IMG/VR virus record: IMGVR_UViG_3300025016_000004
Reading direction: 5' to 3' (one strand)
DNA: 64,000 nucleotides
DNA from: a virus
Lineage: Duplodnaviria > Caudoviricetes
Part shown: in pieces, positions 4,381 through 49,531 of the stretch
How the letters are laid out: the number at the start of each line of letters is the position of its first letter
Numbering within the stretch: position 1 is the stretch's first letter
Notes under the pieces: model-generated
Databases searched by the model: none
Told to the model about the DNA's origin: nothing
The model's input: the letters and a program-made list of their open reading frames with translations, nothing else
Translations under genes and position numbers: made by a program

Positions 4381-4456
4381 GATTATTTTGTTTTAATTAT
4401 AATTCAAAGATACAACAAATAAATGAAACCACCAAATTAATGGTGGTTTATTTTAT

Positions 4457-4774: not shown

Positions 4775-4921
4775 GATTGTTTTGTTTTATTTAATTCAAA
4801 GATACAACAAATAATCCACACTACCAAATATTATTGCATAAAAAAGGTGGAAAATCACCCCCACCTTTACAAAACAAAACATAATCACACCCCTCTTTGA
4901 AGTATTTGATGAGGGGAACGC

Positions 4922-5148: not shown

Positions 5149-5309
5149 TAATATCGTTTTTTATGTTTAGACTTTCGACTATATGATTTTTCCGATTGAT
5201 GAACTTTTTCTTTTGCTGGCCAACCACCATTTTTTTCAAGTTCCATCTCACGGGATGCTTTACGCATCGCAATGTATTGTTGCTCTTTGGTTATTACTCC
5301 GATTTTCAT
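5148..5309 (-). CDS. small basic protein (53 aa, MKIGVITKEQQYIAMRKASREMELE...)
   Basis: Hand translation; promoter 5331 with AACAAAACAAATCACA leader; TAATG overlap with next gene. Confidence 0.7.
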   Translation of the reverse strand: MKIGVITKEQQYIAMRKASREMELEKNGGWPAKEKVHQSEKSYSRKSKHKKRY

Positions 5310-5363
5310 TGTGATTTGTTTTGTTCTCTACAAAGATAAAACAAATAAATGAACTATGCAACT

Positions 5364-5609
5364 TTATTTTAATAATTCAGGTCTTAATCTTTTTATTGAT
5401 TTTACATCAGCTTTTGTCAAGTTACTATTTTTCTTATTAAAACAACAGTTACCAAACATATCAGTTCTATACTCGTTGTTACCATGACATTGAATTATAA
5501 CACCTATTTCCCCATTTTGCTTTACAACTTCACCTAATATAAACTTATCCTTTTTACTTGGATTATTTTCATATTCAAATAACCTATATTCATTATGATT
5601 AACTACCAT
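5364..5609 (-). CDS. hypothetical protein
   Basis: 81-aa ORF coupled to the upstream stop. Confidence 0.6.
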   Translation of the reverse strand: MVVNHNEYRLFEYENNPSKKDKFILGEVVKQNGEIGVIIQCHGNNEYRTDMFGNCCFNKKNSNLTKADVKSIKRLRPELLK

Positions 5610-5836
5610 TACACGAATCTATTTATATCGTTACCCACTAATTCTTTACATCTTTGGCCAAAATCAAAATCATCCATTAACATTAAGTTATCTTTAGTTT
5701 CCTTATCAAACCAAAATGATACACCCTCACCTTTAGTGTTTTCTAAAAGAATGCCATTTGTTACATTATATAACCCTTTAGCCATACCGTCACCTTCATT
5801 TAATTTGAATTGTCCTATTTGTCTTAATACTTTCAT
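5609..5836 (-). CDS. hypothetical protein (start MKVLRQIG)
   Basis: ATG at 5836 after promoter 5861. Confidence 0.7.
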   Translation of the reverse strand: MKVLRQIGQFKLNEGDGMAKGLYNVTNGILLENTKGEGVSFWFDKETKDNLMLMDDFDFGQRCKELVGNDINRFV

Positions 5837-5884
5837 AATCTTGATTTGTTTTGTTCTATACAAAGATACAACTAATAAATGAAA

Positions 5885-6082
5885 CTACCTAATATATTTA
5901 AATGTTTTTTCAAATGTTTTACCATCGAATACCACACCATATACTAATATCTCTCTATCACCCTCATTCGATAGCTCTATTGAACGATATTCCTTGTTAG
6001 GCTCAAAGGTATCGGTTTTCGTTTTAAGAGGTTCTGAACCTCTTAAAACTACTAACCCATGTTTTCTTATTGTTTCACTCAT
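5885..6082 (-). CDS. hypothetical protein
   Basis: 65 aa, ATGA overlap with 6079..6309. Confidence 0.6.
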   Translation of the reverse strand: MSETIRKHGLVVLRGSEPLKTKTDTFEPNKEYRSIELSNEGDREILVYGVVFDGKTFEKTFKYIR

Positions 6083-6309
6083 GATTGAATAGAATCTTTA
6101 AGTTGTTTTTGTGTTGGTGCTTTCCAATTAAGGATTTGACCTGTTTTCACATCAATATCAAATTCGATATAATCCCCATAATGTTCTTCTGGAAAATAAT
6201 CTGGTACATAATTATCTCTCTCCCCAACTTTTACATTTTTTTCATCAAGAAAAGTTATGTGACATAAGTCAGATGTTTTACCACAAAGTTTAATTGTTTT
6301 AATCGCCAT
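6079..6309 (-). CDS. hypothetical phage protein (YVPDYFPEEHYGDYIEFDID..TGQILNW)
   Basis: 76-aa ORF with promoter cassette at 6334. Confidence 0.75.
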   Translation of the reverse strand: MAIKTIKLCGKTSDLCHITFLDEKNVKVGERDNYVPDYFPEEHYGDYIEFDIDVKTGQILNWKAPTQKQLKDSIQS

Positions 6310-6361
6310 GATTGTTTTGTTTTATGTTCTATACAAAGATAAGAATAATATTCGATATAAC

Positions 6362-6754
6362 CTAATTATTGTTAACTTTTATTTCAATATTCCAATTAAG
6401 TTTTTTAATTCCTATGCTAAATATATAAACCGTATAAACAAAATTAGACCACTCAAATTTTAAATAAAATGCAAACCATGTCCATGATAAAAACGTTAGT
6501 GTTAAACTCCTAGACGTTGGTTTACTTGCTGGAATAGTAACGTTATGCCACCCTGTTGCACCACCTCTCGGACCTCTTTTTTGAACCGATTTACTATAAG
6601 GTTTTTTAACCCCATTGGTATAATACCAAATGTCAATTATATAACGCTTAATATACTCGTTAATATACTTCCAAAATGATGCTTTGTAATCTTTACGGTA
6701 TCCAAATTGATTATTAAAGAATATTTGATACCAAGTTAATTTTATTGCTTCCAT
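6362..6754 (-). CDS. hypothetical protein
   Basis: 130-aa ORF in operon-like run. Confidence 0.6.
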   Translation of the reverse strand: MEAIKLTWYQIFFNNQFGYRKDYKASFWKYINEYIKRYIIDIWYYTNGVKKPYSKSVQKRGPRGGATGWHNVTIPASKPTSRSLTLTFLSWTWFAFYLKFEWSNFVYTVYIFSIGIKKLNWNIEIKVNNN

Positions 6755-6759
6755 AATTG

Positions 6760-7041
6760 TTATTGTCTTGTTATATCAAAGGTACGAAATCTTTTTGATT
6801 TAACCAAATCTAAATCTACTTTTTTTAACCATTGAGCTGTGGTTCTTGTGAACACATCACCACATTTACCATTTGAATCAATTGTGACCAACTCATGAAA
6901 AATCCTATCATCATCATCTCGCCAACCCATTTTTAATTCAACTTGAGTTCCAATTCGATTAACCTTGCCATATACTGGCTCTCTATCCTTCTCTTCAGGA
7001 TATGGGTTAAACTCTACAATATCTCCTATTTTAATTCTCAT
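6760..7041 (-). CDS. hypothetical SH3-like protein
   Basis: Starts MRIKIGDIVEF, a KOW/SH3-like pattern. Confidence 0.55.
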   Translation of the reverse strand: MRIKIGDIVEFNPYPEEKDREPVYGKVNRIGTQVELKMGWRDDDDRIFHELVTIDSNGKCGDVFTRTTAQWLKKVDLDLVKSKRFRTFDITRQ

Positions 7042-7214
7042 GATATTAATTCGATTTTACCATTAAACATTCTAGCTTTTTTAATAGCTTCACCTCTTGT
7101 ATATTCCATAATTTCACCATTACCAAATGCATTACCTAAATAACCCTCAATGATTTGGCTGGGTTTTGCGTTATGAGTTTCATTTAATTTAACTCTATAA
7201 TAATTTGTTTTCAT
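7038..7214 (-). CDS. small hypothetical protein (58 aa, MKTNYYRVKLNE...)
   Basis: Hand translation; promoter 7237; ATGA overlap with next gene. Confidence 0.65.
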   Translation of the reverse strand: MKTNYYRVKLNETHNAKPSQIIEGYLGNAFGNGEIMEYTRGEAIKKARMFNGKIELIS

Positions 7215-7347
7215 GATTGTTTTGTTTTATTTAAATCAAAGATACAACAATTATTCGATACTACCAAATAAAAAAGCAACTAGAAATAGTTGCTTTTAAA
7301 AAGCGATGTTGCCATCCCCACTCCACGCAATTATACTTTTTGAAAGT

Positions 7348-7440
7348 TTAGTGTTTCCACGCTTGGTTAACTGTTCCCATTTCCCAACCTGTGAAAATAT
7401 CTTTGATTTTTCTTGCTACCGCTTTTAGTATTCGTTTCAT
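7348..7440 (-). CDS. very small protein (30 aa, MKRILKAVARKIKDIFTGWE...)
   Basis: Hand translation; directly after promoter 7461. Confidence 0.4.
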   Translation of the reverse strand: MKRILKAVARKIKDIFTGWEMGTVNQAWKH

Positions 7441-7499
7441 ATGTAAGGGATTAATTACCCCAAAGATACAACATTATTTTGAGATATGCAAATAAAATC

Positions 7500-7808
7500 T
7501 TATTTCTTTCTATCTGCGAAAATTTTATCTAATCTTTTTTGACCTTCAATCTGCGCATTAACTTCCTTTGCAGTCATTAAATGTGCGTATGGAAATCGAT
7601 ACGCATCACCCAATGGTAAATGAATTAACCCTAACGGTCGCATTTGCAATACCATATATTCAGCATAACCATCTGCCACTGGAAATCTAATAATCTCACC
7701 TGAATTCTTTCCTGTGTAACCCTTTGATTTGATGTACTTTCTTAAGGCTTCCTTAAAATCTTCTTCATCTTTAAACCATTTATCACGGTTAAAGTTAGCG
7801 AAATCCAT
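7500..7808 (-). CDS. conserved phage-type protein (GEIIRFPVADGYAEYMV...LIHLPLGDAY)
   Basis: 102-aa ORF after promoter 7865. Confidence 0.75.
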   Translation of the reverse strand: MDFANFNRDKWFKDEEDFKEALRKYIKSKGYTGKNSGEIIRFPVADGYAEYMVLQMRPLGLIHLPLGDAYRFPYAHLMTAKEVNAQIEGQKRLDKIFADRKK

Positions 7809-7896
7809 CTTTGGTAATTTAACGCTTTTTGGTACTCCATAAATGTTTTTGTTTTTCGTTTATACAAAGATAATAATAATATTTGAATTATGCAAA

Positions 7897-8148
7897 TTAA
7901 GGTAATTTATACGCTATCTTAAAAAATACTACATTACCATTAACGTTTAATGAATATAAACGCATATGTTTTCCAATTCCACCAATTGGATTTAATTTAT
8001 TTAAACGTGATTGTGACTTCTCATTAAATACAGGATTATCATTGATAACCCTCGCTTTATTCCCGATGACTTCAAGACTGTATCTTTTTGGATAAGACGT
8101 CTTAAAATTAAAATCTTTGTAAATAATGATGTTTCTGAATGTTTTCAT
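7897..8148 (-). CDS. hypothetical protein (start MKTFRNII)
   Basis: ATG at 8148 after promoter 8171. Confidence 0.65.
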   Translation of the reverse strand: MKTFRNIIIYKDFNFKTSYPKRYSLEVIGNKARVINDNPVFNEKSQSRLNKLNPIGGIGKHMRLYSLNVNGNVVFFKIAYKLP

Positions 8149-8370
8149 GATTGAATTATCTTGTTCTCTACAAAGATACAAAATTATTAGATAACACAAA
8201 TGTGTACAGAGATTTGGATAATTTAAAAATTGTCCTTATCTTTGTAAATAATGATGTTTCTGAATGTTTTCATGATTGAATTATCTTGTTCTCTACAAAG
8301 ATACAAAATTATTAGATAACACAAATGTGTACAGAGATTTGGATAATTTAAAAATTGTCCTTATCTTTGT
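8113..8370. repeat. exact 125-bp tandem duplication bounded by ATCTTTGT microhomology
   Basis: ATCTTTGT at 8113, 8238, 8363; the two units are identical. Confidence 0.95.
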
Positions 8371-8553
8371 TTTAAATAAAAAATAACCATTTAAAAAATA
8401 TTCATCTGTGTAATCTAATCCAGCTCTTTGCCAAATAAATGTAACCCACGCTTTTGATACACCTAAAACCCTTGCCGTACTTACATTGGTCATCTTACCA
8501 AAACAACTTAAAATTTGTTTTGTCTTACGACTCCTATAATCTATACTAGGCAT
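8293..8553 (-). pseudogene. HTH-like protein whose C-terminus is replaced by inverted-repeat sequence
   Basis: NVSTARVLGVSKAWVTFIW helix-turn-helix pattern; from base 8386 it reads through the repeat (YFLFKTKIRTIF..., also seen in spurious ORF 9465..9647). Confidence 0.55.
8299..8386 (+). repeat. 88-bp perfect inverted repeat, left arm (right arm 9548..9635)
   Basis: Base-by-base reverse-complement identity. Confidence 0.95.
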
Positions 8554-8747
8554 TAATCTTTGGTTATTGTTTGTGAATACTCTAAGTCAATTGTAGTATC
8601 TTTATGTTGCATACCAGCAAAGCGATTCTGTCTATGCGTTTCAACCACTTGGTGACTTCCTTGTGGCTTCCAACCTTGCTCAATGTGGTCTTGAATTGTA
8701 GCACTCAAACCACTTGCACTTCGACTTGTTAATATCTTATATTGCAT
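8553..8747 (-). CDS. DUF1737-like protein
   Basis: YKIL...L...IQ..IEQGWKPQG...YSQ pattern; similar to 13694..13885. Confidence 0.6.
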   Translation of the reverse strand: MQYKILTSRSASGLSATIQDHIEQGWKPQGSHQVVETHRQNRFAGMQHKDTTIDLEYSQTITKD

Positions 8748-8752
8748 GGTTT

Positions 8753-8899
8753 TTAATTTAAGTAAATTGTAACGTGTTCAACTCTAATGATATTAGGGTT
8801 TTGATAACTTGGACAAGACATTAAACCTCTCATGATAGCATTACATTCTTGTATCATAATACTTCTTTGTTCGTCTTTGTAAAGTTCTTGTTCGCTCAT
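8753..8899 (-). CDS. small hypothetical protein (start MSEQELYK)
   Basis: ATG at 8899 after promoter 8927. Confidence 0.55.
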   Translation of the reverse strand: MSEQELYKDEQRSIMIQECNAIMRGLMSCPSYQNPNIIRVEHVTIYLN

Positions 8900-8939
8900 G
8901 ATTTCTTTTGTTTTGTTTGTTCTATTCAAAGATACAACA

Positions 8940-23965: not shown

Positions 23966-25735
23966 ATGGAAATAAAAATTATAGAAAAACTACAAAAGGA
24001 TGGCAAAGTTTTAACTTCAATAGTTAATCAAAATGAATTTACTAAAGCCGCAGAGAAGGCATTTGATTGTAAAACAGATGGTTACAGTACTTTTACGTCA
24101 TGGGGCATGCCTACCAACTTACCTAAAAAATACAATATTGGTGTAATATATGGTGCTTCTGGATGTTTAGGTTTAGGCACTAAAGTATTAATGTATAATA
24201 ATACATTTAAAAATATTGAAGATGTTATTGAAGGTGATGTATTAATGGGCCCCGATTCAACGCCTAGAAATGTAATTAAATTAATTAGAGGGGTTGGACA
24301 AATGTATTGGGTTCGTCAAAATAAAGGGTTTGATTATAGAGTTAATGAAACTCATGTTTTATCTTTAAAAAATAGAAGAGGTATTACGATTAGAAAACAA
24401 ATTAATAATATAAGGAAAACAATAAATTATTACCCACCAGATGAAAATAAAATTATTAATATAAGTGTTAAGGAATTTATACAAAAAAGTAAAAATTTTA
24501 AAACAATTATGAAGGGTTATAAAAGTAATTTAATACAATATAAAAATGATAACTCCGAATTAACAATAAATCCATATTTTTTAGGTTTATGGTTAGGTGA
24601 TGGCGATTCAAATGGTTTGACCATTACTAATATAGATGCTGAAGTTTTAGGTTTTATTAAAAATTATTCAATTACCTTAAATTTAAAGTGTAGTATTAAA
24701 GTAAATGAAAATGGGGTTTCTAGATGTTTAATTAATAATGGTAATATAGGTAAAAATAAATCTAACAATTTATTAAATAATTTTAAACTATATAATTTAA
24801 TAAATAATAAACATATACCAATTAATTATTTATCTAGTTCAGAAAATAATAGGTTAGAGTTACTAGCTGGTCTATTAGATACTGATGGAAGTTACCATAC
24901 TAAAAAAAATTGTTTTGAAATAACACAAAAAAATAGTGTATTAAGCGCACAAATAGCTCAATTAGCTAGGAGTTTAGGGTTTTATGTTAGTAATAACAAA
25001 TCTATACGAAAAATTAAATCAATAGGTTTTGAGGCACTTTATAATAGAATACATATATTTGGTGATTTAGATAGAATACCAACTAAAATAAAAAGAAAGC
25101 AAGCTAAAAAATCTAGTAGAAAATGTAATTGGTTGGTAACTGGAATTAAAATAGAAAAAGACATTGTTGATAATTTTTACGGATTTCAATTAGATGGGGA
25201 TAATTTATTTTTATTAGAGGATTTAACAGTTACCCATAATAGTGGTAAATCTACATTGCTTAAAAACTTTGGTTCCGAGCCTAATTATAGTTGGGATTGT
25301 AATGAAGCTATAATATCTCATTTTGATAACCCTGATGAAGCTATCAACAAATTAAGTGCTGTTGGATTAAATTCTATTCCAAGTTGGTATAAACCGTATA
25401 ACGTTTTATCTAATGGTGAGAAGTTTAGAGCCGATTTAAGCCGCTCAATTAGAGATAACGCTATAATAGATGAATTTACGTCTGTAGTCGATAGAAACGT
25501 AGCAAAAGCAGCTTCAATGGCCTTATCCAAGTATATTAAAAACAATAATATTCAAAATGTGGTGTTGGCAACCTGTCATGAGGATGTTTTAGAATGGTTG
25601 GAACCTGATTGGGTTATTAATACGAATACAGGGGAGGTGTATGACGGAAATTTTATCAAAGGCCAGACATCAATATCGAAATATATCGAACAAAGTATAG
25701 TGTCTGGCCAATGTTTAAAGACCATCACTATTTAG
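23966..25735 (+). CDS. ABC-type ATPase with intein in the P-loop
   Basis: After splicing GASG|SGKST; LSNGEKFR signature, IIDEFTSVVDR Walker B, LATCH switch. Confidence 0.85.
   Translation: MEIKIIEKLQKDGKVLTSIVNQNEFTKAAEKAFDCKTDGYSTFTSWGMPTNLPKKYNIGVIYGASGCLGLGTKVLMYNNTFKNIEDVIEGDVLMGPDSTPRNVIKLIRGVGQMYWVRQNKGFDYRVNETHVLSLKNRRGITIRKQINNIRKTINYYPPDENKIINISVKEFIQKSKNFKTIMKGYKSNLIQYKNDNSELTINPYFLGLWLGDGDSNGLTITNIDAEVLGFIKNYSITLNLKCSIKVNENGVSRCLINNGNIGKNKSNNLLNNFKLYNLINNKHIPINYLSSSENNRLELLAGLLDTDGSYHTKKNCFEITQKNSVLSAQIAQLARSLGFYVSNNKSIRKIKSIGFEALYNRIHIFGDLDRIPTKIKRKQAKKSSRKCNWLVTGIKIEKDIVDNFYGFQLDGDNLFLLEDLTVTHNSGKSTLLKNFGSEPNYSWDCNEAIISHFDNPDEAINKLSAVGLNSIPSWYKPYNVLSNGEKFRADLSRSIRDNAIIDEFTSVVDRNVAKAASMALSKYIKNNNIQNVVLATCHEDVLEWLEPDWVINTNTGEVYDGNFIKGQTSISKYIEQSIVSGQCLKTITI
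24164..25240 (+). mobile_element. intein (359 aa) with LAGLIDADG endonuclease
   Basis: C1 LGLGT..., VNETH, FLGLWLGDG and LAGLLDTDG, ends VTHN, +1 Ser. Confidence 0.95.
25648..25709 (+). other. candidate -1 programmed frameshift signal
   Basis: A AAT TTT heptamer 25648-25654, 6-nt spacer, 9-bp stem GGCCAGACA(25661)/TGTCTGGCC(25709). Confidence 0.7.
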
Positions 25736-28406: not shown

Positions 28407-28919
28407 TTATTTAATTGGTTTTAAAAACATCATTATTTTATTTTTACCTTCCATTTTTGGCAACGATTCAGGTGTGCCTATTCCTAATTCAGCGATATCT
28501 ACTGATATTTTCAAGAGCAATTCTTGACCTTTATCTTTAAAGATATGCTCACGGCCCTTGAAGAATACGAATATTTTAACTTTATGCCCTTTATTTAAAA
28601 ATTTAACAATGTTACCAAATTTAGTTGCCAAATCATTTTCATCAGTGTTAGGCCTGAGCCTTATCGCTTTTAATTTTGGTGTTTTTTGTGGTTTAACAAT
28701 TTTATCTTTTTTAAAGACAAATTTGTTATAATCCATTAACTTACAGACTGGAGTCTCTTTACCTTCGTCTACCATCACTAAATCTAGGTTCAAATCATCA
28801 GCTAAATTCATAGCTTCTTTAATTCCATAGATACCCCTTTCAACATTATTACCAACCAACATTACTTTAGGATGCCTAATTTGGTTATTGGTTTTGTGTT
28901 GTTCTTTTTGCTTTTTCAC
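28407..28919 (-). CDS. infC: translation initiation factor IF-3 homolog
   Basis: NNQIRHPKV.LVG, EA..LA....LDLV, PVCKLMDYNKF, IRLRP.T.END, FL.KG.KVK...FKGRE, P.MEG....M.L.P; GTG start. Confidence 0.85.
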   Translation of the reverse strand: MKKQKEQHKTNNQIRHPKVMLVGNNVERGIYGIKEAMNLADDLNLDLVMVDEGKETPVCKLMDYNKFVFKKDKIVKPQKTPKLKAIRLRPNTDENDLATKFGNIVKFLNKGHKVKIFVFFKGREHIFKDKGQELLLKISVDIAELGIGTPESLPKMEGKNKIMMFLKPIK

Positions 28920-30542: not shown

Positions 30543-31030
30543 GAGAAAATTGCAAGTTGTAGATTAGATACCTTACATAAAGTTAGTAGAGAGCTTGTTG
30601 AATCTTACGATTTAATAAGTATCGAAGATTTGAATGTAAAAGGTATGATTAAAAACCACAAACTATCCAAGCATATTGCTGATGCAAGTTGGGGTAATTT
30701 TGTAACACTTCTTCAATACAAATGTGATTGGTATGGTAAAGAACTTGTAAAAGTTAATCGTTTCTATCCATCATCAAAAACGTGTGGGGATTGTGGTTGG
30801 ATAAATGAAAATTTAAAACTTTCAGATAGGGAATGGACTTGTAATTCTTGTGGTGTAATACACGATAGAGATGTTAATGCAAGTATAAATATCTTAAAAG
30901 AAGGTTTAAAAATATATCGGCAGGGACTGTCGATTACAAAGGTGGAGAGTAAATCAGACTTTGGCAACAAAGCACGCTCTATGAAACCAGAAGCCCATCC
31001 CATCGCCTTTGGCGTGGGTGGGTAGTTCAC
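30543..31030 (+). mobile_element. tnpB: 5'-truncated IS200/IS605-family TnpB with intact right end
   Basis: EKIASCR, IEDLNVKGM (RuvC-II), PSSKTCGDCG...WTCNSCG zinc finger, HDRDVNA (RuvC-III); RuvC-I absent; subterminal hairpin 30993-31022 ending GTTCAC. Confidence 0.85.
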
Positions 31031-32244
31031 TCAGTAATTTTGGCCGTTATACCATCTTTTATGGAGTAAGATAATTTTATGGTTCCACCATCTTTAAGCT
31101 CACCATCCATAACAGCATCTGTTATAGGGTCTTCTACATATTTTTGAATCGCTCTTTTTAGTGGCCTAGCACCATATTCTTTATGATAACCTTCTTTGGC
31201 GATAAAATCCATTGCGGATTTATTAATAATTAATTTGTAATTTAATTCGGCTATACGGTCTTTAACTTCTTTAATTTCATTCTTGATGATAACACCAATA
31301 TTTTCTTCACTAAGTGAGTTGAAAATGATTGTTTCATCGATTCTATTTAAGAATTCAGGTTTGAATTTATCTTTTAATGCTTTCTGAATGATACTTTTAG
31401 CCCTATTTTCTTCATCAACAATAGTATTTTTAGTGGCATAACCAATACCACTACCAAATTGTGATAATTCTTTAACCCCAATATTTGAGGTCATGATAAT
31501 CAAACAGTTCTTAAAGTCTACTTTCCTATCATTGCTATCAGTTAAATGACCTTCATCTAATAATTGTAATAATAAATTGAATACATCATCGTGGGCTTTT
31601 TCAATTTCATCAAATAGAATAACTGAATATGGTTTACGTCTAACAGCTTCAGTTAATTTACCACCTTCACCGTAACCGACATAGCCTGGAGGTGCACCAA
31701 TTAATTTAGACATTGAGTGTTTTTCCATGTATTCTGACATATCAACACGAATCATTGAATCTTCGTCACCAAATACGTGTGCAGCTAACACTTTAGATAA
31801 AAAAGTATTATGTGACAAAATACCGTTGGTATAATATCTTCGATTAGACCCTTCTTTAAGTTCAAGGTCATACATAACTTCTTCGTACCCTAAATTAGTC
31901 ACTTCAATGACTTCAGATTCACCTAAAATACCATCTTGTTCAACAAGTATTTTATCACCCATATTTAAATTTTTAACAAAAACTTCCTCCATATCGTCTT
32001 TATAAAATACAATATGGTTATCAGCACATTTAAGTTCTTTTCCATCACTTAATTTAAGATGATATATTTCGTATGGAATTGTTTCATGTAGTGCTTCTAT
32101 ATCAACCCAACCGTTAGGTGTTTCAACTTCATATTCACTTACCTGAGTTGATTTGGTGATTTTCTTCAATGAATTAAATTCATCTTTATCAAATAATAAA
32201 ACATTATTACTAACCCTTTTTTTTATTTCCTCAATTCTATCCAT
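31027..32244 (-). CDS. clpC: ClpC C-terminal half fused to the C-fragment of a split intein
   Basis: 146-aa IntC then TFLSKVLA, RVDMSEYMEKH, IGAPPGYVGY, LFDEIEKAH, KPEFLNRID, YGARPL; own promoter TATATTTG at 32271. Confidence 0.9.
   Translation of the reverse strand: MDRIEEIKKRVSNNVLLFDKDEFNSLKKITKSTQVSEYEVETPNGWVDIEALHETIPYEIYHLKLSDGKELKCADNHIVFYKDDMEEVFVKNLNMGDKILVEQDGILGESEVIEVTNLGYEEVMYDLELKEGSNRRYYTNGILSHNTFLSKVLAAHVFGDEDSMIRVDMSEYMEKHSMSKLIGAPPGYVGYGEGGKLTEAVRRKPYSVILFDEIEKAHDDVFNLLLQLLDEGHLTDSNDRKVDFKNCLIIMTSNIGVKELSQFGSGIGYATKNTIVDEENRAKSIIQKALKDKFKPEFLNRIDETIIFNSLSEENIGVIIKNEIKEVKDRIAELNYKLIINKSAMDFIAKEGYHKEYGARPLKRAIQKYVEDPITDAVMDGELKDGGTIKLSYSIKDGITAKITE
31807..32244 (-). mobile_element. 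split intein C-fragment (146 aa)
   Basis: EVETPNGW, block B KCADNH, block F MYDLEL, block G ILSHN, +1 Thr. Confidence 0.9.
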
Positions 32245-32342
32245 TTATTTTTATTTTTATGTTAATAACGCAAATATATAATTTATTTTTAATTAAACAA
32301 AATTATTTATACTTATTCTTTTAATTTTATTTATTAATTGAG

Positions 32343-32681
32343 TTATATTAATTTAAGCTTCTCTTTTAATTTATTAAATTCTTTTCTACCACTAATCAAT
32401 CTACATATTTTAGGTTTTATTCTAATGGTATCACCCAAATCTTCTGTTTCTATATCCAAATCTAAAATTATGTTAAACAAATCACCTAAATAATCTTTAT
32501 TTATATCAACCCAAGGGTATGGTAACCCATAATTTTTATGACCCCAACAAGATGCTTCAGTACCTATCCCATTATAATTTAAAATGACAACTAATTCTCG
32601 AACACCCTCATCAATCCTCATACCCAACCCATCGGTTATGATTTTCGACTTATCATCAATTTTTTTATATCTTTCATCCAT
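32343..32681 (-). CDS. small protein with IDE.V..LV..LN..G..T..SC.GH motif (Tyw3-like fold, tentative)
   Basis: Motif resemblance only; lies between the clpC halves. Confidence 0.5.
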   Translation of the reverse strand: MDERYKKIDDKSKIITDGLGMRIDEGVRELVVILNYNGIGTEASCWGHKNYGLPYPWVDINKDYLGDLFNIILDLDIETEDLGDTIRIKPKICRLISGRKEFNKLKEKLKLI

Positions 32682-32724
32682 AATTAAAATTTTTTATATT
32701 CACGTACATACAATAAAGATATCT

Positions 32725-33897
32725 TTATTTTTTTAAGAAGTTGACACATTTATTTATTACCTCTTCTTTATTATTTTTATAATCGTATTCACTAACATGT
32801 AATACTTCATAACAGGATTCTAATATCATTTTATCTCTTTTTTCTTCTCTTAATGAATTTTCTGGTGTACTTCTATGGTAATATGTTCCATCAAACTCAA
32901 TAATTCTTCCAGTCGTTTTATCAAAAAAGTCAGGTAATATTACACCGTTTAACAATGATAATCGATATTCATTATTTTTACCACTATCATCTTTAACACC
33001 TTTATCATATGTTGCGAAATAAATTTCATAATTTGGTGGAAATTCTTTGGTTTCCAATATTTCCCAAAATAATTTTTGTGAAACTTTACTAAAATTATTT
33101 CTTTTATAGTTAGTTAACCATTTAATTTGTCTATCGTTAAATCGTTTTAAACCAGCTTCTTCACCGTATTTTTGAATACAAATTTCTAAGCTAAACGTTG
33201 TTTGCCGTTCAATTACTTTAACTTTAGATTGTCTATAATTAAAACCCCTTTCAATCCAATATTCAATATTTGTTGGGGTTAGTCTTTTTTCAAAATTAAC
33301 ATGTTTAGCAGCATTTATTTGGTTTTTACTGACCATATCTTTAGCATCATTTTCAGAAAACCCTTTATTAACCCAAAAATCAATATTTGCTGGTGTTAAA
33401 CAAAGACGTTTTATTTCTTCTTCACTATAACCTTTATGAGCTAACCTTTTTTTAGATTTGCCATGGCGAATTTTAACACATTTAGATGATTTTTGTTGTT
33501 GTTTAGAAATTTCATTAATTGCTTCTTCTTTAGAATAACCTTTATTAACCCAATATTCTCCACATAAACGATTTCTTTGTTTAAGTTCAAGATTTCGTTT
33601 TTCTAATTCATTCAAAGCACTGTCTTTACCCCATCCACGTTCCAAAAAATACTTTAATTCACCCCATTTTTTTGTTTTAAAACCATAGTTTTTGACTAAC
33701 CACCCACGCATCAAAGAATATGAAATAATACCATCATCTTCTTTTAATTTAACCATAAGGTTTTCCATTTCCAATTTTATGCTCTCATTCTCAAAACGTA
33801 TATTTTTATCTAATTTTAAAACGTAATTTTTAAAAGTTTCAAAATCTGGAAAAACTTCATTTACTTCTTTAACTCCTTTACTTGTTTTTATCTTCAT
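32725..33897 (-). CDS. free-standing Vsr-like (EDxHD/DUF559-type) homing endonuclease
   Basis: C-terminal PDF...IIEFDGTYYH...RD...VLHVSE; N-terminal YW..KG(Y/F)S..EA repeats; late-type motif at 33913. Confidence 0.7.
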   Translation of the reverse strand: MKIKTSKGVKEVNEVFPDFETFKNYVLKLDKNIRFENESIKLEMENLMVKLKEDDGIISYSLMRGWLVKNYGFKTKKWGELKYFLERGWGKDSALNELEKRNLELKQRNRLCGEYWVNKGYSKEEAINEISKQQQKSSKCVKIRHGKSKKRLAHKGYSEEEIKRLCLTPANIDFWVNKGFSENDAKDMVSKNQINAAKHVNFEKRLTPTNIEYWIERGFNYRQSKVKVIERQTTFSLEICIQKYGEEAGLKRFNDRQIKWLTNYKRNNFSKVSQKLFWEILETKEFPPNYEIYFATYDKGVKDDSGKNNEYRLSLLNGVILPDFFDKTTGRIIEFDGTYYHRSTPENSLREEKRDKMILESCYEVLHVSEYDYKNNKEEVINKCVNFLKK

Positions 33898-33957
33898 GAT
33901 ATCTATTTTATAATAAATATCATGAAGTTTTAAAAAGTTCGGATTAATTGGTGTTGG

Positions 33958-36858
33958 TTAATGTTTTATTTTATCCATCAATTGGTTTATATTCATTTTT
34001 TCAATTAAATTAGTTCTTTTATTCCTTACAACTATCTCAGTATCAGCGGTAAAACATTTACCTACACCAGTTGGGCCTAAGAAGATAAATGAACCAATTG
34101 GTTTTTGACCACTTCTAATACCTAACCTACTACGTCTAATTGCTTTAGAAATCTTTTTAACGGCTTCATCTTGCCCTATAATATCTTTTTTTAAATCATC
34201 TTCAAGGGTTTTAAGGCTATTACTTTCAGTGGTTGTTAATTTAGTCAATGGTATTCCAGTCATAGTTGAAATTACTGTTTCTACCATATCTGAAGTGATA
34301 ATTGTACGTTTTTTTTCGTTTTTTGCTTCCCAATTATACATCAATTCATCAACTTTAATCTCATATTCCTTACGTCTATCTCTTAACATTGCGGCATCCT
34401 CAAAATCTTGTTTATTGATGATTTCTTTCATCTTTTCTTTGAGTTTCTGGATTTCAAGTTTTAATTCCTTAATTTCAATTGGAAGTTTGATATCAATATT
34501 GGTTGATGCACCAACTTCATCTAATATATCAATAGCTTTATCAGGCATTGCTCTATCAGAAATATACCTATCGGCCAATTTAACCATTAATTCAATAATT
34601 TCATTATCATAACTAACATTGTGATAAGTTTCGTAATTTTCTTTTATGTTTTTTAGAATCGTAACAGTTTCAAGTAAACTAGGTTCGTTAATTAATACTT
34701 GTTGAAATCTTCTGGTTAATGCACCATCCGTTTCAATATTTTCTCTAAATTCATCTAATGTTGTGGCACCAATTACTTGGATTTCACCTCTAGCCAACGC
34801 TGGTTTGAATATATTTGATGCGTCTAATGAACCTGATGCGTTACCCGCACCTACAAGTGTATGTAATTCATCAATGAAAAGGATGATATCAGGATTATCT
34901 TTTAATTCAGTTAGAATAACTTTCATTCTTTCTTCGAATTGGCCTCGATATTTAGTTCCAGCAACGATTGAAGCTAGGTCTAGTGCGTAAATCTTTTTAC
35001 CTAATAAGGGTTTTGGCGCATCACCTGAGTTTATCAATAGGGCTAACCCTTCAACTATTGATGTGTTATGTGTTACAATATAATTATCTGTAATATATAA
35101 ATGATAATCATCTTCAACCATTATACATTTAGACTCCTTTCGTCCAATTAACTCTATTTTAACAATATTATTCTTAAGTGTTTTAGAATATTGATAATTA
35201 CTTGATACCTTTTCTTTTTTTCTCTTTAATAAAAATAAATTTTTTGGTGAATGGTATCTAATAGTTAAAATATATGACACTTGACCTAATTTTTTAACAC
35301 CTTTATATGTATAAGAAGTTTGTTTATCGCTTATTTTTGCTATACCACCAATAGACCAAATTAATTCTTGTATGTCTTTAATTAATTGGTAACTAGCACT
35401 TGAATATTGTAATGTACCACTATTGGTTACAGTCCCATAAGAATCCATTAAACCTTGTATGAGAGATATTTTTTGGGATAATGAACCGTTTTTATATTTT
35501 TCTGGGATAAATTTATTATTGGCTTTAGTTTCAGTTAAGTTCAATAAATCAGTCTCCCCCAATAATGGGTGTATTCTATCATTTTTATAATATCTAGTTC
35601 TATCTTCAATTAATTTATCTTCGGATAAATTAATTCTAAACGTATTTGTTTTTATCCCATCACCATTTATATTTAATTTATAATCTGACCCAATTAATTC
35701 CTCAACAGTTTCAGGTATTTCAATATCATCAGTGGTAAGTGAAAGTTCGTATTTACCAAAATGACCATCACCTAATAATAACCCCATTAAATAAGGGTCA
35801 ATAATATAATCTAAATCTTTACCCCTATTTATATTTTCAGACACCAAAGGTAATTTTAACCTATAATTAGTATTTTCAATTTTATTTTTAATATCAACTG
35901 TATTAAGAATAGACCAAGATTTTTTTCTTTCTTTACCTACTGGCATACCATAAACTTTCCATAAATGCTCACCACAAGCTTCAGTGCTTCTGCCATCTTT
36001 AAATGTCATTCTATAAATATCCTTTACGCCTTGTGGGTAAACCCCAATTATTTTAGTAGTTTTACCTTCTGGAGTTAACACAAAATCACCGACACTTATT
36101 TCACCCATAGTTGTCCAACCATTAGGTGTTAATATTTTAGCGTCAAGTGGTTGGGCTTTACCAACGCCAGGTTCGCCAATCAATACAGGGTTGTTCTTTT
36201 TACGTCTTGCTAAGATTGCTGTAACCCTTTTAATTTCATTTTCACGCCCAACTACAGGGTCTATTTTATTTTCAGTTGCATTTTTTGATATATCTATACA
36301 GAATCCATCCAATGCTGGCGTTTTAGACGAAGCTTCAATTGTTGGTCCTCTTCGTTTTTTAGGGTTTAAAGGAGAATTTTCAAAATCCTCATGTGGAATA
36401 TTTGCTTCATTGGTAGGTTCATTCATATCTGACATAAGTTTCGTTTTAAATATTTTATAATTTAGGTTAAGTTTTATTAACATTTTTTGTGCCATACATT
36501 TGGTTCTTAATAACGCTAACATAATATGTGCCTCATTAAGTACAGAATCTTTCATCCTATCACGTTCTCTTTGCATTTCTTCAACTATAAATTTAGTTTC
36601 AGGGCTAGGCAATATTTCATTACTTGATGAGTATGCTCGATTATTATTTATAATACTATTGGTTAAGTGGGTGCTTAACTCTTCGAACAATCCATCAACA
36701 TCAAAATGTAATTTACGAAGAACGGAAACAACCACATTATGGTCATGCAGAATGATAGACATAAGGATATGTTCGGGCCTAAATTTATTATCTTCATAAT
36801 CTTTAGCCTGATATATCGCTTGTTGCATCAACTCCTTGGCTGTTTTGGTCATCTCCAT
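33958..36858 (-). CDS. clpC: ClpC N-terminal half (N-domain, AAA1 with intein, UVR coil, AAA2 Walker A) ending in split-intein N-fragment
   Basis: [74 protein letters not shown]|CFTADT; promoter at 36883. Confidence 0.92.
33961..34056 (-). mobile_element. split intein N-fragment (32 aa)
   Basis: [32 protein letters not shown] directly after Walker A Lys. Confidence 0.88.
35065..36156 (-). mobile_element. class 3-type intein (364 aa, Ala1) with degenerate LAGLIDADG
   Basis: Starts AQPLDAK; Trp in block B (EHLW), Cys in block F (KCIMV), Thr in block G (VTHN); second motif GLMDSYG. Confidence 0.9.
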
Positions 36859-36970
36859 AGAATAATTAGTTTAATTTTTATACAAAGATACTAAAAAATT
36901 TTCAATAAACAAGTTGTTTTTTTATATTTTTTGTAGTATAATTGCGTAATAAAGTAAAACACAATTAATT

Positions 36971-37399
36971 ATGTTATTAAAAAGAATTGTAAATGGTGAT
37001 ATTGTAAAAGGAATTTACAAGTCATCGAACATTTTGGTTTCAGAATATAACCAAGCAAACAATGATTTAATCGTAGTCTTTAAATACGGTGGTAAGTATA
37101 AATACAACAATGTACCTAAAACTGATTTCACCAGATTTGAAATGGCTGATAGTCAAGGTGAAGTCTTAAATTCACATATCAAAAAATACACATTTGAAAA
37201 TTTAGGTAAAGTTGATACTAAGCTACTTCTTGAAAGTGTTCAAGAGGCTGTGAAAGAAAATCTAAAAGATTATCAAGGTGTTATTATTTCTGCAATGAAA
37301 GGGATGACAACTGATTGGGATGGTTCAATCTTCGATGATGATAAACTTACGAAAGTAAAAGAATTTATTAAACTTTATGATGATAAAAAAGCTGAATAG
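36971..37399 (+). CDS. KTSC-domain protein
   Basis: SSNI...Y......L.V.FK.G..Y.Y..VP...F..ADSQG. Confidence 0.75.
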   Translation: MLLKRIVNGDIVKGIYKSSNILVSEYNQANNDLIVVFKYGGKYKYNNVPKTDFTRFEMADSQGEVLNSHIKKYTFENLGKVDTKLLLESVQEAVKENLKDYQGVIISAMKGMTTDWDGSIFDDDKLTKVKEFIKLYDDKKAE

Positions 37400-45199: not shown

Positions 45200-48100
45200 A
45201 TGACACAACAAAAGTTAACAGTATTTCAAAAACTAGGTAATGTTTTTGGTAAAGATGGGTTAAACCCACATGTTAAAAAAACCAACAAATATTCGTTAGG
45301 TAATAGTGAGTTACTTAAAACTCAAGATAAAGGTGAGTTTGAAGTTGCTAAATTACAAGCGCAACAAAATAAGTATTTACTTAATCAATGGCAAAAAGTT
45401 GATGGTGAATTATATCAACAAGCTATCCATTATGAAACAACAAGAATTGGTTCATATTCTGATTTTGAAACTATGGAATTCTATCCAGAAATTTCAGCTA
45501 CTTTAGATATTTTCATGGAAGAATCAACAACACCAAATGATAAGGGTGATGTAATCAATGTATATTCAGGTAGTAAACGTGTTAAAAGAATATTGGAAGA
45601 TTTATTAATCAATAGATTAGATATTCACACATCTTTACCTATGTGGACCAGAAACCTTCCCGTAAGAGAGGATAGTATAATTCCATTATTGGATGGAACT
45701 GAGGTAACTATTAAAGATTTATCCAAAATAATTAAAAATGGTGAAGAAGTTTGGTCTTATGCAATTCAAGATAATACCAAGGCGATTGTACCAAGTAAAA
45801 TTATTTGGTGTGACCTTACAAGAAAGAATAGTGAATTATTTAGAGTGACCTTTGATGATGGGACGCATATTGATACCACACCAGACCATGAGTATATGCT
45901 TAGGGACGGTTCATTCAAGAGAGCTGACCAGTTGAGTAAGGGGCAGTCGTTGATGCCGTTTTATACTAGAAAAAGTGAAAAGAAAAAAGATTGCATAGAT
46001 GGTTATGAAAAAGTTTATAACCCATCAACTGGTAAGTATAAATTTACACATTCTATGGTTTCACATCAGTGTGTCCGAGATTTGGATTATGAAAAATCTA
46101 TTGGGTGTCAATTTGATACTCACCACGTAGATTTTAATAAATTGAATAATGACCCACGTAATTTAAATAGAATGACGCATTCTGACCACTTTAAATTACA
46201 TGTTAAACATTTTGATAAAATATTAGGTTCACCAGAGGTTATTAAAAAAAGAATGGATGGGATTGATAAATACTTAAGGTCTGATGAGAGAAAAGAACGA
46301 CTTTCTTTAGAAATGAGTGGAATTTACCCAAAATATTTCGAAGAATATAATAATAGTGAGTTACATAGCGAACATAATTTAACCAATTGGAAATCTGGTG
46401 AGTTCATACAAAAAACTAAAAAAGGTATGACGATTGAACTAACAGATGGGTGTTTAAATTATATTTCTGATTTAATTATTAAATCAGATAAATTCATCCC
46501 TATTAGTAAATTATCCAAATTATTAAAAGGTGATGATAAATTTATAGAATTATTTAAAATAAATTATAGATTAAGAAAGGATATTACTAAATCAATTAAC
46601 AAAACCACTTTAAATAAAAATTTAATTAGAAAGATTGGTTTGAATTACTTTGACTATGTATCATCAATTAACCCAAGTTTAGTGTTAGATAAGGGTTACA
46701 TAAAAGCTAAATCAATTAGTTTAGGTAGAAAAAAAGAAAAGGTTTTACTAAATCATAAAGTGGTTTCTGTTGTTAAATTAACTGAAACTTCTGATGTATA
46801 TTGTTTAGAGGCAGTTGGTCCAAATGGTGAAAGTGATAGACATAATTTCCCAATTTGTAGTAAAGATTCTAATAATCAACATACTAGAGGTGGTGTATTT
46901 TTGTCCAACTGTAAATATGGGGATAATTTTGTTCATTTAAATATAGACCAAACTGCTGGTATCATAGGTGCTAGACAATTACCTAATTTTGAGATAGAGC
47001 GTAGAGAAAATGATATTCAAGGTATTATATCACAATCTCAGTTAGAGGGGGTTAATGCTGATGAAGGTAAAAATAAAACTAGATTCTTTTGGAAGGGTAG
47101 GGATATTACATTTAATTCTTGGCAAATAGCTCACTTTAGATTATTAGGTGATGATAGAAAATTACCTTATGGAACTTGTTTAAAAGGTGATACTAGAATT
47201 AATACCATCGATGGGGTTAAAGAAATTTCGGAAATTAAAAAAGGTGATATAGTTTATAGTTTTAACATTAAGACACAGTCTATAGAATCATCACCAGTTT
47301 TAGATACGATAAATTCTGGTAAAAAAGAATGTTTTAGAATTGGTAGTAGACACAATTTTGTTGATGCCTCTAAAGAACATAAAATATTAATATTAGAAAA
47401 TGATGAGTTTATTTATAAAAATGTGTTAGATTTAAAATTAGGTGATTTATTAGTAATTAATAAAAATGAAAAAACTAAAGAACTTATTAAAATAGATAAA
47501 AGTAAACCAAATGATAATAAAAATGGGTGGTCTAATGATATGGATTTATTTCCAGATTATGTAAATGAAGATTTTGCACAATTATTTGGCTTTTTAATTG
47601 GCGATGGATGGGTAAATCACACAGTAAATACGGTATCTTTTGTCTTAGGTGAGGATGAAGAAACAAATGAATATTACATAAATTTATTAAAAAAATTCAG
47701 TGGTGGTAATCCTAGAGTTGTAAATAATGGTAATCAAGTAGTTTTATCATCTAAATTATTATCAACAATTTTAGAAAGGATGGGATTCAAAGGAAAGTCA
47801 TACGAAAAAAGATTACCAAAATGGATTTACAATACAACCCCTGAAATACAAAAATCATTACTAGCTGGTTTAATGGATGCCGATGGTTGGTGGACTAAAG
47901 ATGAGTGGGTTGTTGGTTGTCATATTGAATTGAATAATGAACAATTAATTAAAGATTTAAAGATATTATTACAACGAATTGGTTATAAGTCTGGGTCAAT
48001 TAGAAGTAGGGTTAGAAAATCCCCAATTATTGAAGGTCGTGAAATTAAAAATGTTAGAGAAAGTTTTATGATAACATTTTTTGATTCATATTTAACCCAA

Positions 48101-49531
48101 ATGAAAAAATATGAAAATAGTAATAGGTTATTGGATAACTATATATTAGAGCCGATTACTATAATTGAAAGTATTGGTGAATTTGAGACATTCGATATTT
48201 ATGTGGAAAATGAAAATCATAATTTTTATGCTAATAATATTGTGGTTCATAATAGTTTCTTAGAAAAAGCAAGACGTATCTGGAAACAATTGATATTGGC
48301 TGAAGATGCTATGCTTGTTTATCGTGTAACTAGAGCACCAGAAAGACGTGTATATAAAATATTTGTTGGTAACATTGATAATGAGGATATTCCTGCTTAC
48401 GTAGATGAAATTGCAAATAGATTTAAACGTTCTCCACTTATTGACCCACAAACTGGTCAAATGGATTTAAGATACAATCAATTAGGTATTGACCAAGATA
48501 TTTTCGTTCCAACAAGAAGTGAAGATGCGGCCACACCAATTGATACCCTTCCAGGTGCGCAAAACTTAGACCAAATCGCTGATATTGAATACTTACAAAG
48601 AAAATTATTCACAGCGTTAAGAGTTCCAAAAACATTTTTAGGTTTTGAGGAACCAACAGGTGAGGGTAAAAACCTTGCATTGCAAGATATTAGATTCTCA
48701 AGAACTATAAACAGAATTCAACAAGCAATGCTTCACGAATTAAATAAAATTGCGATTATCCATTTATACTTAATGGGCTTCCATGATGATATAGATAATT
48801 TCACATTAACGCTTAATAACCCATCAACTCAAGCTGAAATGCTTAAGATTGAACATACTGCGGCTAAAGTAACTCTTTACAAAGATGCTGTAGCTGATGC
48901 TGGTAACGGTTTTGGTGCTATGTCAATGACTAGAGCTAAAAGAGAAATCTTAGGTTGGAGTGATGATGAAATTAAGCAAGATTTACTTGAACAAAGAATT
49001 GAAAAGGCTGCGGCTGCTGAATTAGAAAACACTGCTAATGTAATTAAAAATACTGGTGTATTTGATAGAGTAGATAGAGTTTATGGTGATATGGAAATGG
49101 CTAAAATCGGTGGTCAAGTTGATGAAGAAGGTAATGCTGCTGGTGAATCTGGTGGTAGTGCTGGAGGTGGTGGCGGCTTTGGTGGCGGCTTCGATGCTGG
49201 TGAATTAGATTTGGGTGATGAAGAAATTGATACTGAAGGTGAAGAAGGGTTAGGTGAAATTGGGGGTGAAGAAGGATTAGGTGGACCTGAAGCTGGACCT
49301 GAAGATACTACAACTGAAGAAGGTACAACTAAAAAAGGTAGATTAATCAATGAAACGGTTAATAAAAAACCTAAAGACATTTCTACTAAAAAGTACTTAG
49401 AACTGTTAAATGAAAGTGTTAGTGAAGATGATAAGAACAACAACGAAATCACTAAGATTTACGATAAATCCATCAAATTTAATGATGATTTAAATTCAAT
49501 GATTAATGAAATAGATTCGAAATTGGGATAA
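45200..49531 (+). CDS. portal protein (T4 gp20-like) with two inteins
   Basis: Exteins YPEISATLDI, WTRNL|CKYGDNF, IAHFRLLGD..LPYGT|SFLEKARRIWKQL..AEDAM..YR..RAPERR, LPGAQNL. Confidence 0.93.
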   Translation: MTQQKLTVFQKLGNVFGKDGLNPHVKKTNKYSLGNSELLKTQDKGEFEVAKLQAQQNKYLLNQWQKVDGELYQQAIHYETTRIGSYSDFETMEFYPEISATLDIFMEESTTPNDKGDVINVYSGSKRVKRILEDLLINRLDIHTSLPMWTRNLPVREDSIIPLLDGTEVTIKDLSKIIKNGEEVWSYAIQDNTKAIVPSKIIWCDLTRKNSELFRVTFDDGTHIDTTPDHEYMLRDGSFKRADQLSKGQSLMPFYTRKSEKKKDCIDGYEKVYNPSTGKYKFTHSMVSHQCVRDLDYEKSIGCQFDTHHVDFNKLNNDPRNLNRMTHSDHFKLHVKHFDKILGSPEVIKKRMDGIDKYLRSDERKERLSLEMSGIYPKYFEEYNNSELHSEHNLTNWKSGEFIQKTKKGMTIELTDGCLNYISDLIIKSDKFIPISKLSKLLKGDDKFIELFKINYRLRKDITKSINKTTLNKNLIRKIGLNYFDYVSSINPSLVLDKGYIKAKSISLGRKKEKVLLNHKVVSVVKLTETSDVYCLEAVGPNGESDRHNFPICSKDSNNQHTRGGVFLSNCKYGDNFVHLNIDQTAGIIGARQLPNFEIERRENDIQGIISQSQLEGVNADEGKNKTRFFWKGRDITFNSWQIAHFRLLGDDRKLPYGTCLKGDTRINTIDGVKEISEIKKGDIVYSFNIKTQSIESSPVLDTINSGKKECFRIGSRHNFVDASKEHKILILENDEFIYKNVLDLKLGDLLVINKNEKTKELIKIDKSKPNDNKNGWSNDMDLFPDYVNEDFAQLFGFLIGDGWVNHTVNTVSFVLGEDEETNEYYINLLKKFSGGNPRVVNNGNQVVLSSKLLSTILERMGFKGKSYEKRLPKWIYNTTPEIQKSLLAGLMDADGWWTKDEWVVGCHIELNNEQLIKDLKILLQRIGYKSGSIRSRVRKSPIIEGREIKNVRESFMITFFDSYLTQMKKYENSNRLLDNYILEPITIIESIGEFETFDIYVENENHNFYANNIVVHNSFLEKARRIWKQLILAEDAMLVYRVTRAPERRVYKIFVGNIDNEDIPAYVDEIANRFKRSPLIDPQTGQMDLRYNQLGIDQDIFVPTRSEDAATPIDTLPGAQNLDQIADIEYLQRKLFTALRVPKTFLGFEEPTGEGKNLALQDIRFSRTINRIQQAMLHELNKIAIIHLYLMGFHDDIDNFTLTLNNPSTQAEMLKIEHTAAKVTLYKDAVADAGNGFGAMSMTRAKREILGWSDDEIKQDLLEQRIEKAAAAELENTANVIKNTGVFDRVDRVYGDMEMAKIGGQVDEEGNAAGESGGSAGGGGGFGGGFDAGELDLGDEEIDTEGEEGLGEIGGEEGLGGPEAGPEDTTTEEGTTKKGRLINETVNKKPKDISTKKYLELLNESVSEDDKNNNEITKIYDKSIKFNDDLNSMINEIDSKLG
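45659..46909 (+). mobile_element. non-canonical intein (417 aa): Pro1, block-F Cys, HNH endonuclease insert
   Basis: PVREDSIIPLLDG aligns to CLxxDTxIPLLDG; TTPDH block B; THHVDFNKLNNDPRNL HNH; VYCLE; ends FLSN, +1 Cys. Confidence 0.85.
47177..48253 (+). mobile_element. intein (359 aa) with LAGLIDADG endonuclease
   Basis: CLKGDT, ASKEH, FGFLIGDG and LAGLMDADG, FDIYV, VVHN, +1 Ser. Confidence 0.95.

Follow-up and report, generated by a model that had tools for sequence, protein, structure and literature searches.

A phage clpC-like gene fractured at its second Walker A motif by an atypically split intein and predicted to be rejoined by protein trans-splicing

The present study describes a fractured gene for a ClpC-like unfoldase on a 64,000-nucleotide stretch of phage DNA (IMG/VR record IMGVR_UViG_3300025016_000004; Duplodnaviria, Caudoviricetes), and the whole of this stretch is called the window here. 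The two halves of the gene lie on the minus strand between positions 31027 and 36858, and each of them carries one piece of an intein at the place where the second Walker A motif is divided. The best explanation of the locus as a whole, which we hold to be highly probable, is a fractured phage clpC in which the P-loop of the second AAA ring (D2) is interrupted by a split class 1 intein, with the protein made whole by trans-splicing and a homing endonuclease encoded in the gap. The anatomy of the locus, the conservation of the intein, its homology to other inteins and its mobility pattern are directly established. The parts and their arrangement are all known already and the intein is homologous to characterised ones; it is the host protein that is new. 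No account of a Clp or Hsp100 ATPase with a split intein came up in full-text searches of the open literature, in agreement with a first-pass annotation of this DNA, which knew of none in an Hsp100 chaperone. The core of that annotation was a ClpC-type gene broken at its second Walker A by an atypical split intein, with an endonuclease encoded between the halves and one promoter per half. All computational tests available support it: block conservation in 120 homologues, the pattern of presence and absence among related loci, the homology to TerL inteins, the docking model, and the Vsr-like endonuclease with its hairpin. The parts of the two halves are as follows.

33958..36858, minus strand: N-half gene, 966 amino acids (aa); Clp_N, AAA module of the first ring (D1) with a cis intein, M-domain/UVR-like coil, start of D2 up to GPTGVGK, IntN, stop.
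33961..34056, minus strand: IntN (N-terminal intein piece), 32 aa; Cys1 (N-half residue 935) follows the Walker A Lys without a gap; block A only.
31027..32244, minus strand: C-half gene, 405 aa; IntC, then the C-extein.
31807..32244, minus strand: IntC (C-terminal intein piece), 146 aa; leader of about 26 aa, block B KCADNH (His77), block F MYDLEL (Asp126), block G SHN (Asn146).
31027..31806, minus strand: C-extein, 259 aa; Thr+1 (TFLSK) first, then the rest of D2 (AAA_2), an IGY loop of ClpP type, and ClpB_D2-small.

It was found by translation of the open reading frames (ORFs) that the N-half ends in GPTGVGK followed by CFTADT...KIKH and a stop, with the 32-aa IntN at 33961-34056, and that the C-half begins with the 146-aa IntC containing TPNGW, CADNH, MYDL and SHN and continues with TFLSKVLA; both ends are exactly as first annotated. 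The split point lies between the Lys and the Thr of the second Walker A, that is, in the D2 P-loop. When IntN, IntC and the 364-aa intein in D1 were excised in silico, 829 aa were left, GPTGVGK was joined to TFLSK and both P-loops were restored, so that the earlier estimate of about 829 aa was reproduced. The halves are 1713 nucleotides (nt) apart, close to the 1.7 kb given before, and the gap holds the two expected ORFs on the same strand, of 390 aa (32725-33897) and 112 aa (32343-32681).

An assembly error had been named at the outset as something that would overturn this picture. In each of four groundwater/aquifer runs, which possibly belong to one sampling campaign or are the origin of the window itself, a 5.9-kb stretch was recovered in one contig with zero differences. 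The same neighbouring genes were present in 24 of the 24 contigs read that encode an identical C-half. Since the stretch is intact in four runs and its layout is shared by 24 contigs, an assembly error behind the split clpC is very unlikely. Short joints occur in other contigs of these metagenomes, one of which skips from 31755 to 34057; they resemble the uninterrupted clpC of other organisms, but since their sides are just 35 letters at 90% likeness they were not used as evidence.

As to the identity of the host protein, Pfam domains Clp_N, AAA and AAA_lid_9 and a weak UVR were found in the N-half, and AAA_2 and ClpB_D2-small in the C-half. This set of domains, with the spliced length of 829 aa, is that of a two-ring Hsp100 protein. 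Architecture and length fit unfoldases of the ClpC/ClpA type, and "ClpC-like" is used here as a descriptive label for a protein of unproven orthology. With ClpC and ClpA, the class I Hsp100 proteins, it shares Clp_N, two AAA modules, AAA_lid_9, ClpB_D2-small, a short middle region and a tripeptide loop; it differs from them in being encoded by a phage. The ClpB and ClpA equivalog cutoffs of NCBIfam are not reached by an intact relative (ClpB 856 vs 1232, ClpA 783 vs 993); this relative, L005, is one of 80 related viral loci (L-numbers) that were fetched and classified by intein state. A UVR coil and a GIGY loop had been annotated at first. The GIGY loop is present, but the UVR match in the middle region is weak and remains, at 20.0 bits, below the cutoff of 21.5. 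The IGY of the D2 loop aligns with [MLIV]GF of relatives, at a position which we take to be that of the ClpP-docking tripeptide.

The intein itself is divided after block A and before block B, which is an atypical position. Its conservation was followed over 120 homologous C-halves of 399-698 aa, each starting with IntC, which are the best 120 of 8000 matches to the C-half. Block B KCADNH was found in 116 of the 120 and block F MYDLEL in every one, while GILSHN followed by T was found in 112. Cys1 is present in the window and in all eight related loci with a D2 split, and Cys1, His77, Asp126, His145, Asn146 and Thr+1 are essentially invariant over the 120 homologues. We infer a class 1 HINT intein in split form, competent for trans-splicing, because the catalytic residues are complete and invariant, because of the behaviour of characterised homologues, and because the split is inside the P-loop.

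The characterised homologues are atypical TerL inteins. IntC matches CatC, the C-terminal piece of an engineered consensus intein of this kind (6dsl_B, E 5.6e-8), and more weakly VidaL, gp41-1 and the Pho RadA intein; the 32-aa IntN gave chance matches to haemagglutinin and nothing else when compared with the PDB by phmmer. Cat is the consensus of GOS-TerL and AceL-TerL, and the IntN/IntC sizes are 30/104 for Cat, 37/115 for GOS-TerL and 25/104 for AceL-TerL, all of them with Cys+1 (PMC11766414). The motifs KC[AS]DNH, YDL and YYTNGI[LV]SHN are common to the IntC of the window and CatC, and the TerL inteins AceL, GOS and Cat (6dsl) share with the window the class 1 type, Cys1, a short IntN split after block A and an origin in phage metagenomes. 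In contrast to them, the extein of the window is a ClpC-type Hsp100, the +1 residue is Thr and not Cys, IntC is longer (146 aa, of which about 26 form a leader), and splicing is a prediction.

The two pieces were also modelled together, as residues 905-966 of the N-half and residues 1-160 of the C-half. The two-chain model of IntN and IntC scored 0.82 and the best control 0.00; a mark of 0.82 is reached by 51 of 78 solved complexes and by 2 of 108 mismatched pairs. The pLDDT (predicted local distance difference test) of the partner was at least 63, and at least 68% of the contacts agreed between runs. In this model residues 935-948 of IntN pack on IntC residues 33-41, 71-78, 122-127 and 137-146, which are blocks B, F and G.

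The gap between the halves contains the following features.

32725..33897, minus strand: free-standing endonuclease gene, 390 aa; N-terminal helical repeats (EYWxNKG type) and a C-terminal Vsr-like nuclease domain (EDxHD / I-Bth0305I type).
33892..33927, minus strand: RNA hairpin with a 16-bp stem; its 3' arm holds the AUG of the endonuclease (33897-33895).
32343..32681, minus strand: ORF of 112 aa; no Pfam or PHROG match and not in the gaps of related loci.

The 390-aa protein is a putative homing endonuclease, as judged from its alignment and its structural model. Homologues with 46-62% identity are encoded in the gaps of L001, L002, L003, L006 and L009 and in the D1 gap of L026, and D323, E334 and H341 are invariant in the alignment of this family. 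The top Foldseek match of the model was the catalytic domain of I-Bth0305I (3r3p; prob 1.00, TMt 0.70, E 0.055), and Vsr of E. coli (1cw0, 1vsr) was also among the matches. It is the C-terminal domain that resembles I-Bth0305I, which differs in being intron-encoded, whereas the window protein is free-standing in an intein split. The profile of the gap-endonuclease family gave no sequence match in the PDB, and no PHROGs match was obtained for the 390-aa protein or the 112-aa ORF. The hairpin over its start codon has a folding energy of -18.8 kcal/mol (z -8.2), and 0 of 200 shuffles were as good. It recurs in L001, L002, L003 and L006, where the changes keep the pairing, including changes that preserve a G-U pair, and it probably limits translation of the endonuclease.

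It is known that fractured genes of this layout exist in phages, and Vsr-like endonucleases were reported in half of the fractured-gene loci, with a hairpin in the 5' leader of the endonuclease (PMC2677866). The genes of Dassa et al. 2009 (gp41, DnaE, NrdA/NrdJ, IMPDH, ligase and terminase) have in common with the window the extein/split-intein halves on the same strand, the phage context, the free-standing Vsr-like endonuclease between the halves and the 5' hairpin; a term search of the text found no mention of a Clp or chaperone host (PMC2677866). The gap of the window differs from those loci by its additional 112-aa ORF. Most of the split inteins in that collection are reportedly cut at the canonical endonuclease position and not after block A. 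When the 112-aa ORF was compared by tblastn with the fetched loci, the sole match was L081, which is the same phage; its Atlas model has a pLDDT of 0.81 and the nearest Atlas clusters are without names.

Each half of the gene is preceded by a promoter-like element.

36883..36912, minus strand: element of the N-half; TTG, 19 nt, -7 box TATCTTTG at 36883-36890; the box ends 24 nt before the ATG.
32271..32300, minus strand: element of the C-half; TTG, 19 nt, -7 box TATATTTG at 32271-32278; the box ends 26 nt before the ATG.

The promoter consensus of Bacteroidota is TAnnTTTG preceded by TTG (-33/-7), and a promoter of this kind had been annotated for each half at 36883 and 32271; the boxes, with TTG at a spacing of 19 nt, were confirmed at both places. 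Between 30 and 38 kb the minus strand has no other match to TTG-N19-TAnnTTTG than these two. The whole window contains 48 such matches, against 11 in shuffles, and of the 72 minus-strand TAnnTTTG boxes 25 are found in the 60 nt before an ORF start, where about 5.6% is expected. Scans for sigma-70 promoters and intrinsic terminators gave no enrichment in 30900-37000. It was also observed that the box TATCTTTG occurs in about 25 copies on the minus strand at 400-10400, mostly 15-30 nt before small ORFs; these boxes look like a phage promoter class of the Bacteroidota -7 type that drives a block of small genes.

A second intein is present in the N-half, in the Walker A of D1.

35065..36156, minus strand: D1 intein, 364 aa, LAGLIDADG; between GEPGVGK and TSIVEGLA; Ala1, Trp66 (B:12), Cys344 (F:4), Thr362 (G:5), terminal HN, Thr+1.

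The point between the Lys and the Thr of a P-loop is a classic site of intein insertion, and the Trp, Cys and Thr residues correspond to the WCT signature by which class 3 is defined (PMC5050341). By its sequence the D1 insert is a class 3 LAGLIDADG intein. Its best match in the PDB was a DnaB helicase intein (6bs8, E 3.8e-10), presumably the DnaB1 intein of Mycobacterium smegmatis. The two agree in their Ala start and in the aligned Trp (B:12), Cys (F:4) and Thr (G:5) columns; they differ in that the window intein sits in the D1 P-loop of a Clp protein, carries a LAGLIDADG endonuclease and is followed by Thr+1. Ala1 and the Trp/Cys/Thr triplet are invariant in L008, L027, L030 and L031. A contig of about 14 kb, seen in all four runs at phage-like depth, matches the ends of the D1 intein alone (35062-35103 and 36097-36140), which are separated in it by 1008 other bases. 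A related intein whose endonuclease core is different is suggested by this contig, either in another part of the phage or in a co-occurring relative.

The distribution of these inteins was read from the 80 loci. The gene is uninterrupted in 52, and the same D2 split was found in eight (L001-L004, L006, L009-L011), with IntN of 28-36 aa; a search for Clp split inteins at this site had been proposed in the first-pass annotation. In L004 and L026 the D1 Walker A holds a homologous split intein, whose IntC is 63-66% identical to that of the window, and four of the loci have an Ala-initiated cis intein in D1. L005 and L007, which are the nearest relatives by extein at 84-85% identity, are free of inteins at both sites. 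Between L001-L003 and the window IntC is 76-78% identical and the flanking exteins 61-64%, and this greater conservation of IntC would fit either selection on the intein or recent homing. Similarly, identity to the window is 84-86% for the D1 inteins of L027, L030 and L031 and 63% for their C-exteins. Since L005 and L007 are empty while L001-L003 and L027, L030 and L031 are filled, presence and similarity of the inteins do not track the relatedness of the host genes. Judged from these identities, this is the pattern expected of homing elements under selection for splicing competence.

The family is considerably larger than the Clp loci. A library-wide search with IntC gave 844 clusters at 50% identity, 435 of them at E <= 1e-10. 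In most of the 150 matches listed the domain starts within the first ~20 residues, and in the 126 of these with a recognised terminal motif the following residue was T in 89 and S in 37. The exteins of the 98 nearest representatives include TerL (34), DnaB-like helicases (16) and Clp AAA_2 (10), and also other AAA/ABC ATPases and a clamp loader. By sequence relationship, the split intein of ClpC forms a branch within a large P-loop-targeting family whose characterised members are the TerL inteins, and split clpC is common in metagenomic phages, a family and no singular oddity.

Several of the related loci are arranged in other ways. At 4041-9248 of L004 clpC is in three pieces, with homologous atypical split inteins in both the D1 and the D2 Walker A; the middle piece begins with IntC and ends with IntN, and the D1 gap is 57 nt. 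Cross-reaction between the two would cyclise or skip the middle piece, and this arrangement would imply natural orthogonality within one intein family. In L026 (4243-8798) the split intein is at the D1 Walker A and not at D2, and its gap endonuclease has the nuclease domain most closely related to that of the window; a jump of the split intein between two paralogous P-loops is suggested by these sequences. L010 (5165-7720) keeps the D2 split with a gap of 42 nt and no endonuclease gene, and is a split that outlived its endonuclease. In four C-halves (P0019, P0052, P0056 and P0097) IntC is preceded, in frame, by a further conserved domain of about 250 aa, which would be excised along with the intein.

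The following course of events is proposed for the window. A ClpC-type gene would have been invaded at GK/T of the second Walker A by a mobile intein of class 1 whose natural split falls after block A, and the split would be maintained by a free-standing Vsr-like endonuclease gene between the halves. The halves would be transcribed from matching promoters and translated separately, and IntN would dock into the nearly complete HINT fold of IntC. The thioester formed by Cys1 would be attacked by Thr+1, and cyclisation of Asn146 would release an 829-aa unfoldase whose D2 P-loop is intact; cis-splicing of the class 3 intein out of the D1 P-loop would be needed too. The start-codon hairpin would hold the endonuclease down, and in co-infection the endonuclease could cut intein-less clpC alleles, upon which the cassette would spread. 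Splicing, the activity of the endonuclease and the need for ligation in ATPase function are what we infer from the observations. It could further be imagined that assembly of the unfoldase is a regulated two-key switch, in which D2 needs trans-splicing and D1 needs removal of the class 3 intein, whose chemistry relies on an internal cysteine. We regard this as unlikely; if it were true, unfoldase activity would be timed or tied to redox or stress during infection, which goes beyond plain parasitism. That splicing gates unfoldase activity is a speculation.

A number of points weigh against the proposed reading of the locus. The Thr position of block B is Ala in the window (ADNH), where CatC has Ser, and Thr, the +1 nucleophile here, generally reacts more slowly than Cys or Ser. 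The proposed reading does not account for the IntC leader of about 26 residues, which is specific to the clade, or for the 112-aa ORF in the gap. The docking score may partly reflect solved homologous complexes, so that it speaks of likeness and is not independent proof of binding. The AlphaFold model of the endonuclease is moderate (pLDDT 68), and its Pfam matches to DUF559 and MTES_1575 are sub-threshold. Moreover, clpP was not found within the 64-kb window, a further difference from ClpC and ClpA.

Some of these points bear on the possibility that the halves associate through their intein fragments, or act separately, without being ligated, the intein pieces being a dimerisation handle or inert. 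Ligation is predicted, Thr+1 and the Ala at position 7 of block B could slow the chemistry, and the docking model speaks to association and not to catalysis. However, an unligated D2 would hold a HINT domain of 178 residues inside its nucleotide pocket, and six catalytic residues that are essentially invariant over 120 homologues are unexpected for a mere docking module; we consider such a state quite unlikely. Another possibility is a decaying pseudogene, in which insertion of the endonuclease broke a cis intein and the function of clpC was lost. The window is indeed rich in selfish elements, with at least three further intein-like inserts and a truncated TnpB at the 3' end of the gene. Yet both ORFs are intact and have a promoter each, the split with its conserved catalytic blocks has been kept across diverged phages, and L010 retains it without an endonuclease gene. 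In addition, Clp ATPase is a shared core gene in 24 genomes of a large-phage survey (PMC12619734), and loss of the gene appears decidedly improbable. That an assembly error, or repair at the level of RNA or translation such as intron splicing or ribosomal bypass, gives a continuous protein is hardly credible, although no search of Rfam for an intron was made. The one difference-free contig in each of the four runs and the layout common to 24 contigs stand against it, as do the two ORFs encoded in the 1713-nt gap and the in-frame intein halves at both of its edges, which removal at the RNA level would not need.

If a trans-spliced clpC is accepted, an Hsp100/ClpC unfoldase joins the proteins that are kept in pieces and rejoined by trans-splicing, which is here predicted. 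The split clpC does not reveal a new mechanism. It does mean that atypical split inteins of the AceL/GOS-TerL type are no terminase curiosity; they belong to a family of 844 clusters whose nearest members stand after the GK of P-loops, and the same family is found at both Clp rings. For phage biology, a conserved core gene of large Bacteroidota phages turns out to be heavily colonised by homing elements. Protein engineering would gain many natural Cys1/Thr+1 and Cys1/Ser+1 variants to mine, and possibly naturally orthogonal pairs as in L004. The window pair had been put forward at first as a new short-N ligation tool. IntN is short as claimed, but with 32 aa it is longer than those of AceL (25) and Cat (30) and than that of PolB16 OarG, where IntN/IntC are 15/168 (PMC10189870). 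Because its IntN is longer than that of existing tools and its +1 residue is Thr, its value for ligation would be modest.

The source of the DNA is a phage, as a T4-type large terminase, a portal, a prohead protease and a major head protein are encoded at 43-57 kb of the window. The best DNA matches of the window are huge uncultured phages, and contigs as long as 315 kb were found to carry an identical C-half. Clp ATPase was among the shared core genes, and present in 24 genomes, in a survey that covered 25 genomes of large phages, most of them with predicted Bacteroidota hosts (PMC12619734). It is probably a large phage with a host in Bacteroidota, which fits because of the TAnnTTTG/TTG promoters, the matches to huge phages and the core Clp ATPase of that survey.

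A few other genes of the window were noted. On the plus strand at 30630-31025 a truncated C-terminal fragment of a TnpB / Cas12f-like protein (TNB zinc ribbon, E 8e-27) converges on the C-half and abuts its stop; it looks like a truncated remnant of the IS200/IS605 type. The phage encodes IF3, with IF3_N and IF3_C domains, at 28407-28919 (minus strand). By tblastn, the D1 intein, IntC and the gap endonuclease each lack a second close copy in the window. The T4-type portal (45200-49531, plus strand, 1443 aa) has two apparent intein-like inserts, the first with Intein_splicing at aa 161-538 and matches to HNH endonuclease PHROGs inside it, and the second with PT-HINT at aa 667-765 and LAGLIDADG at aa 884-952, while the recognisable portal domain match is at aa 1015-1261. 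Finally, an ATPase-like protein (phrog_11143) of 589 aa (23966-25735, plus strand) is host to an intein with Hom_end_hint and LAGLIDADG (aa 67-352), and its resemblance to the D1 intein of clpC, in the LAGLIDADG region of the latter, is only weak.

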